The notes beneath the pieces were generated by a model. The model was not told the origin of the DNA. It saw only the letters and a list, made by a program, of their open reading frames with translations, and made no database searches. Source: Escherichia coli (GTDB taxonomy: Bacteria; Pseudomonadota; Gammaproteobacteria; Enterobacterales; Enterobacteriaceae). From it: a DNA stretch of 64,000 bases. The stretch lies in NCBI RefSeq assembly GCF_002854065.1, contig NZ_CP024147.1; one strand, 5' to 3'. How positions within the stretch are numbered: position 1 is the stretch's first letter; each line of letters opens with the position of its first letter. Positions 20,158 through 28,459 of the stretch are shown here, in pieces. Made by a program: the position numbers and the translations under genes.

Positions 20158-20234
20158 GGAGCGGTAGTTCAGTCGGTTAGAATACCTGCCTGTCACGCAG
20201 GGGGTCGCGGGTTCGAGTCCCGTCCGTTCCGCCA
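20158..20234 (+). tRNA. aspU: tRNA-Asp (GTC anticodon), distal gene of rrnH
   Basis: GGAGCGGTAGTTCAGTCGGTTAGAATACCTGCCTGTCACGCAGGGGGTCGCGGGTTCGAGTCCCGTCCGTTCCGCCA. Confidence 0.97.
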
Positions 20235-20244
20235 CTTATTAAGA

Positions 20245-20274
20245 AGCCTCGAGTTAACGCTCGAGGTTTTTTTT
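20245..20274 (+). terminator. rrnH operon rho-independent terminator
   Basis: Perfect stem cctcgag/ctcgagg followed by T8. Confidence 0.8.
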
Positions 20275-20396
20275 CGTCTGTATATCTATTATTGCCAGAA
20301 TCGCAAAAATCCTCTGCATTTTACGCTCTTTTTCCTCAACAGTCTGAAGCCCATAATCACCTCAGTTAACGAAAATAGCATTAAAAGAGGCATATT

Positions 20397-21201
20397 ATGG
20401 CTATCCCTGCATTTGGTTTAGGTACTTTCCGTCTGAAAGACGACGTTGTTATTTCATCTGTGAAAACGGCGCTTGAACTTGGTTATCGCGCAATTGATAC
20501 CGCACAAATCTATGATAACGAAGCCGCAGTAGGTCAGGCGATTGCAGAAAGTGGCGTGCCACGTCATGAACTCTACATCACCACTAAAATCTGGATTGAA
20601 AATCTCAGCAAAGACAAATTGATCCCAAGTCTGAAAGAGAGCCTGCAAAAATTGCGTACCGATTATGTTGATCTGACGCTAATCCACTGGCCGTCACCAA
20701 ACGATGAAGTCTCTGTTGAAGAGTTTATGCAGGCGCTGCTGGAAGCCAAAAAAACAAGGGCTGACGCGTGAGATCGGTATTTCCAATTTCACGATCCCAT
20801 TGATGGAAAAGGCGATTGCTGCTGTTGGCGCTGAAAACATCGCTACTAACCAGATTGAACTCTCTCCTTATCTGCAAAACCGTAAAGTGGTTGCCTGGGC
20901 TAAACAGCACGGCATCCATATTACTTCCTATATGACGCTGGCGTATGGTAAGGCCCTGAAAGATGAGGTTATTGCTCGTATCGCAGCTAAACACAATGCG
21001 ACTCCGGCACAAGTGATTCTGGCGTGGGCTATGGGGGAAGGTTACTCAGTAATTCCTTCTTCTACTAAACGTAAAAACCTGGAAAGTAATCTTAAGGCAC
21101 AAAATTTACAGCTTGATGCCGAAGATAAAAAAGCGATCGCCGCACTGGATTGCAACGACCGCCTGGTTAGTCCGGAAGGTCTGGCTCCTGAATGGGATTA
21201 A
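20397..21201 (+). pseudogene. dkgB: 2,5-diketo-D-gluconate reductase B (aldo-keto reductase) interrupted by +1 frameshift in an A7 run (20748-20754)
   Basis: Two overlapping ORFs (20397-20771 and 20704-21201) that join into one AKR protein; total span 805 nt = 804+1; frame switches at …[17 protein letters not shown]. Confidence 0.85.
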
Positions 21202-22112
21202 GCCTCTCTGACAGCTCCTCCGGGAGCTGTTTTTACATGCTCACTAAGGAAATCGATAAAAGCCCGGATGCGCGTATTTACCGCACGGTCGCTGTAATAG
21301 ACGGCACTGAATGGCATTTCCACTGGCAACACTTTATCTGCCATTAACTCCACCAATTCTCCGCGAGCGATTTCTTTGTCGATCATGTAGTCGGACAAAC
21401 ACGCAATCCCGTTGCCACTCAGGCAAAGCTGTTTCAGTGTTTCCCCACTATTGGATGACAAACCGTACTTCACCTCATGTAATTGTCCATCGCTATAGGC
21501 TATCGGCCAGGTATTGAGGGAAGCGGGTTCAGTGAATCCCAGGCAAACATGTTGCTTTAAATCGTCGATCGTTTCTGGCTTCCCGTAGCGGGAAATATAA
21601 TCGGGGGAGGCGATAATTTTTCGATAACTGTTAAATAACGGCCTGGCACGTAAGCTGGAATCCGTTAACGTACCGGCGCGTATCGCGACATCCACTTTTC
21701 TTTCGATCAAATTAATAATCGTTTCGGAGGAGACTAGCGATAAAGTGACTTCCGGATAGCGTTCACGGAAAGGCTTAATTAACGGCATCAGAAAGTGCAG
21801 CACCACTGGAGTTGCGGCATCGATCCGTAACAGTCCACGCGGTGTATTACGCGTCTCCATAATTTCTGATTCTGCCGCTGCCATCTCCTGCAAAATTGAC
21901 TGTACGCGACGAAAATAACGCTCGCCTTCTTCCGTCAGGCTAAGTTGTCGCGTGGTCCGATTAAGCAGGCTAACGCCAAGTTTCATCTCCAGCTTTTTCA
22001 CCGCCCGGCTTACCGCTGAGTTTGCTTGCCCTAATTGTTCCGCTGCCCGGCTAAAGCTGCCGCTTTCTACGACCGAAACAAAAATGGCGAGTTCTTCCGA
22101 CGTGGCTTTCAT
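21198..22112 (-). CDS. yafC: LysR-family transcriptional regulator YafC
   Basis: 304-aa ORF with N-terminal HTH (…[23 protein letters not shown]…). Confidence 0.9.
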
Positions 22113-22352
22113 TTTTGCTCCTGTTGCAAAATAGAAGAGATATTTTGAATTTATTTGTCATTAAACCATCAGGATGCGTGATATGTCATCCGATTTAATG
22201 TTCTCAATAATGAGCAAAATTCTGACCGGTGTAAGCACTTGCTTACATAACAATATACAATTGCTCGTTGAAAGAGTGAGCTAAAATCCCTATAACAGTA
22301 GAACCCTCCCGAGTGCGGAAGGGTTGACGTAATAGAGGTTTCAAAGTCAAAA

Positions 22353-23153
22353 GTGCGAAAAAACACCTATGCCATGCGCTATGTTGCCGGACAACCTGCG
22401 GAGAGGATCTTACCGCCGGGGTCTTTTGCGAGCATCGGCCAGGCATTACCACCCGGAGAACCGTTAAGTACCGAAGAGCGTATTCGGATCCTGGTGTGGA
22501 ACATATACAAACAGCAACGCGCTGAATGGTTGTCGGTATTAAAGAATTACGGCAAAGACGCACATCTGGTGTTATTGCAGGAAGCGCAAACAACGCCAGA
22601 GTTGCTACAGTTTGCGACTGCTAACTATCTTGCCGCCGATCAGGTACCCGCTTTCGTGCTGCCACAACATCCTTCTGGCGTAATGACCCTTTCGGCGGCA
22701 CATCCAGTGTATTGCTGCCCGTTACGTGAACGAGAACCCATTTTGCGTCTGGCGAAGTCGGCACTGGTGACGGTCTATCCATTACCTGACACCCGCCTGT
22801 TGATGGTGGTTAATATACACGCCGTCAACTTCAGTCTGGGCGTGGATGTTTATAGTAAGCAGTTACTTCCTATTGGTGATCAGATAGCTCACCACAGCGG
22901 CCCGGTCATTATGGCGGGAGATTTCAATGCCTGGAGCCGTAGAAGGATGAACGCGTTATATCGTTTTGCGCGGGAAATGTCGCTGCGTCAGGTGCGTTTT
23001 ACCGATGATCAGCGCCGTCGGGCGTTTGGTCGCCCGCTCGATTTTGTTTTCTACCGTGGTCTGAACGTCAGCGAAGCTTCTGTACTGGTTACGCGCGCTT
23101 CCGATCACAATCCGCTACTCGTTGAATTCAGTCCCGGCAAGCCTGATAAATAA
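22353..23153 (+). CDS. yafD: endonuclease/exonuclease/phosphatase-family protein YafD
   Basis: 266-aa ORF, conserved synteny. Confidence 0.85.
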
Positions 23154-26234: not shown

Positions 26235-26264
26235 AGATTACCTCTCAGTGTAAAACGGAAGGTT

Positions 26265-26990
26265 GTGATGAAACCGGCAAGAGTCCCTCAAACTGTCGTG
26301 GCTCCTGATTGCTGGGGCGATTTGCCCTGGGGAGAGCTTTATCGCAAGGCGCTGGAGCGCCAGCTCAACCCGTGGTTCACTAAAATGTATGGTTTTCATC
26401 TGCTTAAGATTGGCAATTTAAGCGCAGAAATCAATTGCGAAGCGTGCGCGGTTTCTCATCAAGTGAATGTTTCTGCTCAAGGAATGCCCGTCCAGGTGCA
26501 GGCGGATCCACTTCATCTTCCTTTTGCCGATAAATCCGTTGATGTTTGTCTACTGGCACATACATTGCCGTGGTGCACCGATCCGCATCGTTTATTGCGT
26601 GAAGCCGATCGGGTATTGATTGATGATGGCTGGCTGGTGATTAGTGGCTTCAATCCCATTAGTTTAATGGGATTACGCAAACTTGTGCCGGTATTGCGCA
26701 AAACCTCGCCCTATAACAGCCGGATGTTTACTCTGATGCGGCAACTGGACTGGCTCTCTTTGTTGAATTTTGAAGTGCTGCACGCCAGCCGTTTCCATGT
26801 TCTCCCGTGGAACAAACACGGAGGAAAACTTTTGAATGCGCATATTCCTGCGCTTGGTTGCTTACAACTTATTGTTGCCCGGAAACGGACTATTCCTTTA
26901 ACGCTAAATCCGATGAAACAGAGTAAAAACAAGCCACGAATTCGCCAGGCGGTTGGAGCCACCCGGCAATGTCGTAAACCACAGGCTTAA
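26265..26990 (+). CDS. yafS: putative SAM-dependent methyltransferase YafS
   Basis: 241-aa ORF, conserved synteny. Confidence 0.85.
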
Positions 26991-27454
26991 ACTTCGACTT
27001 GGTAGCCCGTATCTTCCAGTGTGGGATTCATCGCCGCGGCACGAGCCAGTTCATCACAGCGTTCGTTTTCCGGGTGTCCGGCATGGCCTTTAACCCATTC
27101 CCATTTGATTTGATGCTGCCCCAGCGCAGCATCAAGACGTTGCCAGAGATCGACATTTTTAACTGGTTTTTTGTCTGCTGTTTTCCAGCCACGTTTTTTC
27201 CAGTTATGGATCCACTGGGTGATACCCTGGCGGACATACTGGCTGTCGGTACTCAAAATGACTTCGCAATGTTCTTTTAACGCCTCCAGCGCGACAATAG
27301 CGGCCATCAACTCCATGCGGTTGTTGGTGGTGCGGGTGTAGCCAGCGCTAAAGGTTTTCTCGCGTCCGCGATAGCGTAAAATAGCGCCATAACCCCCAGG
27401 TCCAGGATTGCCCAGACACGAACCATCGGTGAAAATTTCTACCTGTTTAAGCAT
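26987..27454 (-). CDS. rnhA: ribonuclease HI
   Basis: [26 protein letters not shown]… 155 aa; the ORF-track entry is extended upstream. Confidence 0.95.
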
Positions 27455-27518
27455 CTCTGGTAGACTTCCTGTAATTGAATCGAACTGTAAAACGACAAGT
27501 CTGACATAAATGACCGCT

Positions 27519-28250
27519 ATGAGCACTGCAATTACACGCCAGATCGTTCTCGATACCGAAACCACCGGTATGAACCAGATTGGTGCGCACTATGAAGGCC
27601 ACAAGATCATTGAGATTGGTGCCGTTGAAGTGGTGAACCGTCGCCTGACGGGCAATAACTTCCATGTTTATCTCAAACCCGATCGGCTGGTGGATCCTGA
27701 AGCCTTTGGCGTACATGGTATTGCCGATGAATTTTTGCTCGATAAGCCCACGTTTGCCGAAGTAGCCGATGAGTTCATGGACTATATCCGCGGCGCGGAG
27801 TTGGTGATCCATAACGCAGCGTTCGATATCGGCTTTATGGACTACGAGTTCTCGTTGCTCAAGCGCGATATTCCGAAGACTAATACCTTCTGTAAGGTCA
27901 CCGATAGCCTTGCGGTGGCGAGGAAAATGTTTCCCGGTAAACGCAACAGCCTCGATGCGTTATGTGCCCGCTACGAAATAGATAACAGTAAACGAACGCT
28001 GCACGGGGCATTACTCGATGCCCAGATCCTTGCGGAAGTTTATCTGGCGATGACCGGTGGTCAAACGTCGATGGCTTTTGCGATGGAAGGAGAGACACAG
28101 CAGCAACAAGGTGAAGCAACAATTCAGCGCATTGTACGTCAGGCAAGTAAGTTACGCGTTGTTTTTGCGACAGATGAAGAGCTTGCAGCACATGAAGCCC
28201 GTCTCGATCTGGTGCAGAAGAAAGGCGGAAGCTGCCTCTGGCGGGCATAA
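27519..28250 (+). CDS. dnaQ: DNA polymerase III epsilon subunit (3'-5' proofreading exonuclease)
   Basis: [18 protein letters not shown]… DEDD exonuclease motifs; divergent from rnhA. Confidence 0.95.
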
Positions 28251-28382
28251 ATACATGTAAAAGGCGTTAAAAATAGCGACTTGGGCGATTTTTGCAGCAA
28301 ACGATTCAAAAGATGAGAAAAACCGTTGACGAAGGTCGAGGCAATCCGTAATATTCGCCTCGTTCCCAACGGAACACAACGC

Positions 28383-28459
28383 GGAGCGGTAGTTCAGTCG
28401 GTTAGAATACCTGCCTGTCACGCAGGGGGTCGCGGGTTCGAGTCCCGTCCGTTCCGCCA
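28383..28459 (+). tRNA. aspV: tRNA-Asp (GTC); integration site of the downstream island
   Basis: Identical 77-nt sequence to aspU at 20158-20234. Confidence 0.97.

Follow-up and report, generated by a model that had tools for sequence, protein, structure and literature searches.

Gene content and the tRNA-Asp pair

The window, a 64,000-nt stretch of the E. coli contig NZ_CP024147.1 (assembly GCF_002854065.1), contains the rRNA operon rrnH (15002-20103, + strand), which was delimited with Rfam and ARAGORN and is collinear with K-12 rrsH-rrfH. On the same strand Rfam recognised its 16S (15002-16543), 23S (16990-19892) and 5S rRNA genes (19988-20103), and both programs recognised the genes for tRNA-Ile (16612-16688) and tRNA-Ala (16731-16806). 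The distal gene of the operon, following rrfH, is aspU (20158-20234, +). Behind it we read from the sequence the rrnH/aspU terminator (20247-20274, +), consisting of the hairpin CCTCGAGTTAACGCTCGAGG and a run of eight T; the palindromic stem was also detected by a hairpin scan, which reported it on the - strand. The second tRNA-Asp gene, aspV (28383-28459, +), is free-standing and follows dnaQ. Thus, aspU and aspV form the left and the right copy of a direct repeat, both on the + strand, with a start-to-start spacing of 8,225 bp.

Both genes were called as tRNA-Asp(GUC) by ARAGORN, which read the anticodon GTC in each, and by Rfam (RF00005, 67.7 bits each), and their sequence has the cloverleaf and the encoded CCA end of a tRNA. 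Direct string comparison gave 77/77 identity, and even for a 25-nt sub-pattern of the repeat the expectation from shuffled sequences was 0.00, which places the repeat far beyond chance. The same 77-nt tRNA occupies both loci in K-12, XJ34 and CUWW06. The description of the two genes as identical 77-nt direct repeats in the initial annotation is thus confirmed, and the names aspU and aspV given there are right according to the rrnH context and the collinearity with K-12 b0206 and b0216. The statement that the rrnH-linked copy is uninterrupted is also borne out. The flanks of aspU are identical in K-12, XJ34 and CUWW06. The pair itself is an ordinary finding: aspT, aspU and aspV are known as three identical tRNA-Asp genes of E. 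coli (PMC5389703), and aspU and aspV are well-known paralogues.

The two genes differ in their expression. The aspU tRNA is cut from the rrnH transcript, and aspV appears to have its own signals: a consensus scan predicted a promoter-like site (TTGACG, 17 nt, TAATAT; 28326-28354, +) 29 nt upstream of the tRNA, and downstream lies a native terminator (28467-28506, +) composed of a hairpin with a 14-bp stem (28467-28498) and a T-rich tail. At least 54 of the 78 species keep this terminator sequence. In about 10-14 species another hairpin is located 3' of aspV, next to genes for transporters, adhesins, porins and similar proteins. We considered this hairpin as a mark of integrase-borne islands, but its neighbour genes spoke against that, and in one species (L043) yafV follows directly; it is simply another terminator allele.

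The interval between the tRNA genes (dkgB to dnaQ, 20397-28250) was defined from open reading frames, synteny with the annotated XJ34, K-12 and CUWW06 genomes, and alignment breakpoints. It encodes dkgB (20397-21201, +), yafC (21198-22112, -), yafD (22353-23153, +), yafE (23231-24001, +), mltD (24049-25407, -), gloB (25479-26234, -), yafS (26265-26990, +), rnhA (26987-27454, -) and dnaQ (27510-28250, +). The window is collinear with K-12 across aspU (b0206), aspV (b0216) and all genes in between, and K-12 shares the gene order and the positions of the two tRNA genes (distal in rrnH, and 132 nt after dnaQ). However, yafE is shorter in K-12 owing to a deletion of about 220 nt, and dkgB, which is intact in K-12, is frameshifted in the window by an additional A at about position 20748.

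The island between aspV and yafV

A strain-variable region of about 15.9 kb (28507-44425), delimited by alignment breakpoints and GC content, separates aspV from yafV (44478-45257, -; NCBIfam NF007757 and K-12 synteny), the first core gene past it. It is a genomic island in the loose sense: it is missing in K-12 and in the empty-site genome L004, lies between the core flanks dnaQ-aspV and yafV, and has an atypical GC content, at 58-59% between 29 and 34 kb and 31% between 39 and 41 kb, whereas the window as a whole has 51%. The right border falls at 44425 in comparison with K-12 and at 44490 in comparison with L004. On the left, the homology to L004 continues to 28506, i.e., 47 nt beyond aspV, whereas the K-12 sequence departs from position +8 after the tRNA gene, where yafT-ykfM-yafU-yafF replaces the native terminator and the island. 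The initial annotation had placed an island 3' of aspV; this is correct, with the refinement that the island starts 47 nt downstream of the tRNA instead of abutting it.

The island carries a decayed T6SS-1/Rhs cluster. On the - strand, tssA (28591-29637), tssG (29648-30676), tssF (30640-32523), tssE (32539-33033) and tagK (33847-34761) were identified by NCBIfam, Pfam and the annotation of XJ34 and CUWW06, and tagJ (33030-33860, -) is a pseudogene in which W211 is changed to a stop codon. An ARAGORN call of a tRNA-His (30764-30857, -) is a false positive located inside tssF and has no Rfam match. An IS2 of 1,331 bp (35209-36539, -; NCBIfam IS2 TnpA/TnpB) is flanked by a 5-bp target duplication, CGAAC. 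It is followed by the N-terminus of clpV/tssH fused in frame to a C-terminal Rhs fragment with an AHH nuclease tip (36540-39390, +; NCBIfam, Pfam AHH), a lesion that is also annotated in XJ34. Farther to the right are an IS3-family element of 1,258 bp (41315-42572, -; target duplication CAAT), which holds the Rfam match 'isrC', an orphan Rhs core fragment (42912-43811, +; NCBIfam, Pfam) and a symE-like toxin gene (about 44129-44362, -; NCBIfam, Pfam and the CUWW06 annotation mapped through the alignment). According to the open reading frames, NCBIfam and Pfam, tssB, tssC, hcp, vgrG and tssJ-M are absent between aspV and yafV. Thus, of the 13 core genes (tssA-tssM) of a functional T6SS-1 only tssA, tssE, tssF and tssG are intact.

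The aspV locus is a published hot spot for T6SS islands (PMC2907695, PMC2941450, PMC5363993). The window shares with these islands (the E. coli T6SS-1 in LF82 PAI I and EDL933, and Salmonella SPI-6/SPI-20) the site beside aspV, the order tssA-tssG-tssF-tssE-tagJ-tagK-clpV and the Rhs elements. In contrast to the intact clusters of 35-37 kb (37 kb in EDL933), the one in the window is non-functional and spans about 16 kb, its clpV is truncated and fused to Rhs, a stop codon interrupts its tagJ, and it carries insertions of IS2 and of an IS3-family element. The island is the known aspV-yafV hot spot, here filled by a dead T6SS-1/Rhs remnant. In CUWW06, which is 99.93% identical, positions 33843-41314 are lacking, and the gap adjoins an IS3 copy. 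IS insertions and deletions next to IS copies, as opposed to events mediated by the tRNA, are wearing the remnant down.

Islands at tRNA genes may also be integrative elements that use a P4-type integrase and attach at the tRNA 3' end, in which case aspU would be a spare attachment site. The published hot spot at aspV, the position beside a tRNA gene and the strain-dependent content would fit such an origin. Moreover, we found a 15-nt scar of the tRNA-Asp 3' end, CCGTCCGTTCCGCCA, beside dkgB in three other species (L006, L018 and L046), and in L006 the scar adjoins an integrase fragment that was recognised with PHROGs and had no match in Pfam. These scars belong to the P4-type, tRNA-targeted kind of element and show that such elements target tRNA-Asp and that aspU can serve as an integration site; they also served as a positive control for the search for att repeats. 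In the window, however, no integrase was present among the island open reading frames of at least 80 amino acids, all of which were assigned or scanned with NCBIfam and Pfam. The initial annotation had proposed looking for a partial copy of the aspV 3' end at the far border of the island; none was there, whether matches had to be exact (10-25 nt) or could differ at up to 3 positions, nor did the tRNA 3' end recur elsewhere in the window (exact, at least 10 nt; or 16-25 nt with at most 3 mismatches). SPI-20 has likewise been reported to have no obvious direct repeats (PMC2907695, PMC2941450, PMC5363993). In addition, the sequence of the island does not begin within or at the tRNA 3' end, as in integrase-borne islands, but 47 nt past it. 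Because this start lies after the native aspV terminator, a feature conserved throughout the family and retained in empty-site genomes, the island was not inserted into the tRNA. It is very unlikely to be a tRNA-targeted element.

Stability of the dkgB-dnaQ interval

Chromosomal duplications and deletions mediated by repeats are known for rrn operons, IS copies and tandem tRNA genes (e.g., unequal crossing-over at tyrT-tyrV), and the repeats in these systems either span 0.2-5 kb or lie close together. Like them, aspU and aspV are direct repeats in one replichore that could in principle recombine by a RecA-dependent route. Unlike them, the two copies measure 77 bp and are 8 kb apart with dnaQ in between. 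The minimal homology for recombination is 23-90 bp, depending on the pathway (PMC3758752), so that a perfect identity of 77 bp in direct orientation is long enough for RecA-dependent exchange to be physically possible, although this length is near the lower limit.

The initial annotation had suggested that the repeats could mediate deletion or duplication of the dkgB-dnaQ segment, i.e., that they are a substrate for unequal crossing-over with a biological consequence. We surveyed 5,426 complete E. coli genomes and found the interval in 5,424 of them, at a median of 1 place per genome and at most 2. None of the 5,426 genomes contained the junction expected from a duplication (dnaQ-tRNA-dkgB) or from a deletion (5S-tRNA-tssA), with the reservation that finished assemblies display only fixed or clonal states, in which transient tandem duplications or rare deletions at frequencies of about 1e-5 or lower in a culture would be invisible. 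The query for the deletion junction was built on the T6SS-type flank of the window strain; for strains with other flanks a deletion is excluded indirectly, because the interval is present. We considered the two interval-negative genomes as natural deletions between aspU and aspV, and rejected this, since both also lack the unrelated control gene fadE, and one of them lacks rRNA and tRNA matches as well. Similarly, interval copies on replicons labelled as plasmids were not excised circles but mislabelled chromosomes or chromosome fragments; for example, CP088631.1 (9.3 kb) is an error-rich rrnH-aspU-dkgB-yafC contig.

Across the Enterobacteriaceae, aspV follows dnaQ at a distance of 132-139 nt in 78 of the 80 species, and both tRNA-Asp copies are found with the same gene order in 32 species from 13 genera of the family. 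Since this arrangement of two copies with different flanks is common to 13 genera, it must be ancient. A deletion would remove dnaQ, rnhA, mltD and gloB together with one tRNA-Asp gene, and we infer that it would be selected against; strain tables pair a dnaQ deletion with the spq-2 suppressor (PMC2877720). Furthermore, any homologous rearrangement would be dominated by other nearby repeats of far greater length, namely the rrn operon (5 kb) and the IS3 copies (1.26 kb). Given the absence of recombinant junctions, the single-copy state of the interval in essentially all genomes and the stability across genera, the suggested role of the repeats found no support, and crossing-over of biological consequence between them has a very low probability. 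We consider, with a probability of about 0.9, that aspU and aspV are paralogues kept identical by selection which have no detectable rearranging role, and that the island is a separate matter.

This puts on record the stability of two paralogous tRNA genes familiar from textbooks and in itself matters little. In practice, the tRNA repeat may be ignored when rearrangements are sought at this locus, where variation really comes from IS elements and from the aspV-yafV hot spot. Modest by-products are the precise borders of the aspV island, set after the native terminator, the 15-nt tRNA-Asp att scar as a positive control and the finding that Citrobacter has an aspV isodecoder that has diverged.

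Identity of the copies and possible sequence exchange

Both genes code for one and the same tRNA, hence their identity. Strong purifying selection on every base of the tRNA accounts for the identity of aspU, aspV and aspT, and occasional gene conversion among the copies probably helps to maintain it. A recent segmental duplication with subsequent divergence of the flanks could also leave perfect identity, and a gapped alignment (88 nt, 96.6%) does extend into weak similarity over the first ~11 nt downstream. The exact identity, however, halts at both tRNA boundaries (flanking extension of 0 nt), which argues that it does not stem from a recent duplication. The upstream contexts are also unrelated (a 5S rRNA spacer at aspU and a free-standing promoter at aspV), and the two-copy order with different flanks across 13 genera contradicts a recent origin. 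We regard such a duplication as barely credible and retain selection on the tRNA as the explanation.

In Salmonella and Citrobacter both tRNA-Asp copies carry a derived T17, which suggests that sequence does pass between the copies, if only non-reciprocally. We tentatively propose, as a speculation that may well prove wrong, that aspT, aspU and aspV recombine only by gene conversion, crossovers being purged by selection, and that a variant aspV of Citrobacter has escaped homogenisation. If so, the Citrobacter species concerned would hold two tRNA-Asp isodecoders. The variant, seen in some Citrobacter aspV genes, is a compensatory change in the acceptor stem from C5:G69 to U5:A69, and aspU is unchanged.

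The tRNA-Asp pair and its conservation

The direct repeat described in the initial annotation was confirmed at its exact coordinates by ARAGORN, Rfam and direct comparison of the copies. Both aspU (20158-20234, + strand) and aspV (28383-28459, + strand) are tRNA-Asp genes with anticodon GTC that score 67.7 bits in Rfam; they are identical at 77/77 positions, no match extends past either end, and the distance from start to start is 8,225 bp. In shuffled sequence, the expected count of a 25-nt sub-pattern of the repeat is 0.00. Because aspU is preceded, in this order, by 16S, tRNA-Ile, tRNA-Ala, 23S and 5S (ARAGORN, Rfam), it is the distal gene of the rRNA operon, with the rrnH terminator hairpin and then a T8 run behind it. 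A promoter-like site (TTGACG, 17 nt, TAATAT; 28326-28354) precedes aspV, which also has its own terminator with a 14-bp stem (28467-28498). The mature tRNA sequence is the only part that the two copies share, which argues against the pair being a recent segmental duplication. The window is collinear with K-12 from gmhB-rrnH through aspU, dkgB, yafC, yafD, yafE, mltD, gloB, yafS, rnhA and dnaQ to aspV (98-99% identity), and both positions hold the same 77-nt sequence in K-12, XJ34 and CUWW06. The identity of aspT, aspU and aspV has been reported before (PMC5389703). The repeat is a real, ordinary and already known aspU/aspV pair.

When dnaQ neighbourhoods were taken from 80 species of Enterobacteriaceae, aspV was located 132-139 nt 3' of dnaQ in 78, and the contigs of the remaining two stop short of its position. 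Many draft contigs end at or inside aspU, as expected beside an rRNA operon. In 32 species, which belong to 13 named genera, both copies could be seen, aspU lying 6.3-8.5 kb 5' of dnaQ, and the dkgB-dnaQ gene order was kept in 12/12 loci checked. The arrangement has thus been retained since these genera diverged. The left repeat is missing at the dkgB locus in five species (L025, L053, L055, L060 and L063), where the 1.7-3.7 kb 5' of dkgB contains neither rrnH nor aspU; L025 retains just the 3' half of the aspU terminator hairpin. In Trabulsiella odontotermitis (L051:2376-2683), a thrU-tyrU-glyT-thrT cluster and about the first 40 tufB codons are fused to tRNA-Asp position 12 just upstream of dkgB, reflecting either a rearrangement with its breakpoint inside aspU or a misassembly.

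The two copies were identical to each other in 29 of the 32 species. In three Citrobacter loci (L015, L024 and L035), aspV, about 137 nt after dnaQ, carries C5T and G69A, a compensatory change of a single acceptor-stem pair (C5:G69 to U5:A69). As the aspU of the same genome has neither substitution, these genomes encode two tRNA-Asp isodecoders. This aspV type was present in 14 loci/species, mostly Citrobacter. In Salmonella arizonae, diarizonae and Citrobacter, both copies carry the D-loop variant T17, which is compatible with occasional gene conversion between the copies; parallel substitution is also a possible source.

Rearrangement between the repeats

It had also been proposed that the repeats mediate deletion or duplication of the dkgB-dnaQ interval. 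Depending on the pathway, recombination in E. coli has a published minimal homology of 23-90 bp (PMC3758752), and exchange at 77 bp would thus be possible but inefficient. Among 5,426 complete E. coli genomes, 5,424 contained the interval interior (20300-28300), and in 5,414 of these a single place covered at least 80% of it; the median number of places per genome was 1 and the maximum 2. A chimeric query of the dnaQ 3' end, the tRNA and the dkgB 5' region revealed a tandem-duplication or circle junction at ≥80% coverage in 0/5,426 genomes, and the corresponding deletion query (5S, tRNA and tssA side) was likewise covered in 0/5,426. The two genomes without the interval are not aspU × aspV deletions, because the fadE control fragment was missing as well and one of them gave zero matches, rRNA and tRNA included. 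Interval copies in the plasmid collection were not excised circles but mislabelled chromosomes or fragments; the sole record near the 8.2-kb circle size, CP088631.1, is an error-rich rrnH-aspU-dkgB-yafC contig. Furthermore, deletion of the interval would take out dnaQ, the loss of which is severely deleterious. In strain tables, a dnaQ deletion is carried together with the spq-2 suppressor (PMC2877720). With support in none of the complete genomes and the arrangement kept across 13 genera, rearrangement of the interval by the repeats is unlikely; rare transient events may occur.

The island between aspV and yafV

A strain-variable island does lie 3' of aspV, as initially annotated, but it begins after the native terminator and is not integrated into the tRNA. 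Homology to K-12 stops at 28466 and restarts at 44426, whereas homology to Escherichia L004, one of many species with an empty site (yafV within ~100 nt), reaches 28506 and restarts at 44491. As the 46 nt 3' of aspV, which form its terminator, are also conserved in at least 54/78 species, the island starts at 28507 and extends to about 44425-44490, beyond an intact tRNA-plus-terminator unit; K-12 represents the derived state, which has lost the native aspV terminator. A partial aspV 3' end, suggested as a mark of the far border, was searched for and found nowhere else in the window. The same search detected scars in Escherichia sp. L006 (1757-1771), Citrobacter sp. L018 (1514-1528) and Lelliottia sp. 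L046 (1502-1516), which served as positive controls: a bare 15-nt tRNA-Asp 3' end, CCGTCCGTTCCGCCA, stands immediately 5' of an aspU-type terminator and dkgB; the DNA preceding it is foreign and in L006 includes an integrase fragment (phrog_216, E = 2e-12). These loci look like islands integrated into aspU, which can thus serve as an integration target in other lineages. The uninterrupted state of aspU in the window is contingent and no rule.

The island contains tssA, tssG, tssF, tssE, tagJ (33030-33860; W211 to stop, also in CUWW06) and tagK, IS2 (35209-36539; target duplication CGAAC), a fusion of the clpV N-terminus to an Rhs C-terminus tipped by an AHH nuclease, then small orphan ORFs, a 1,258-bp IS3-family element (41315-42572, − strand; target duplication CAAT) and, beyond it, a second Rhs fragment and a symE-like gene. 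The island lacks an integrase as well as tssB, tssC, hcp, vgrG and tssJ-M, and is a dead T6SS-1 remnant. An ARAGORN call of a 94-nt tRNA-His within tssF (30764-30857, − strand), repeated at the same place in L006, is a false positive without Rfam support. aspV is a known site of T6SS islands, including E. coli LF82 PAI I (35 kb), the EDL933 island (37 kb) and Salmonella SPI-6 and SPI-20, the last reported to have no obvious flanking direct repeats (PMC2907695, PMC2941450, PMC5363993). The window matches this picture, departing solely in its degree of decay, and its island is one of the known occupants of this hot spot.

CUWW06, the closest genome (99.93% identity over 27.5 kb), lacks the 7.5-kb stretch 33843-41314 beside an IS3 copy (compared with 27513-28775 of L003, the CUWW06 locus); ongoing erosion of the island is therefore IS-linked. 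The element at the CUWW06 junction is in the opposite orientation to that in the window, and its right junction is shifted by 2 nt; a simple adjacent deletion would not account for such a flip.

Other features of the window

A second, 100% identical copy of the IS3-family element (58569-59826, + strand) lies 16 kb away in inverted orientation with its own target duplication (TAA). For recombination, this pair is a much stronger substrate than the 77-nt tRNA genes, and it could invert yafV-yafP. Both copies contain 150-bit Rfam matches to the sRNA isrC (42382-42504 and 58637-58759). The second copy is a nested insertion interrupting an IS1 that splits yafP (57934-59962; 9-bp target duplication GACCCTGAA); CUWW06 has the same IS1 without the nested IS3. 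Around 20748, dkgB has one extra A in an A6 run, and the resulting frameshift, also present in CUWW06, may be genuine or may reflect a homopolymer sequencing error. K-12 and many other genomes lack about 220 nt between yafD and yafE (23196-23394; 98% coverage in two pieces), and yafE encodes 256 aa in the window vs 207 aa in K-12. Finally, Rfam matches to the REP-derived naRNA4 occur at 7291-7367, 49191-49268 and 52520-52597, two of the three flanking the REP-associated transposase gene rayT (52696-53193).
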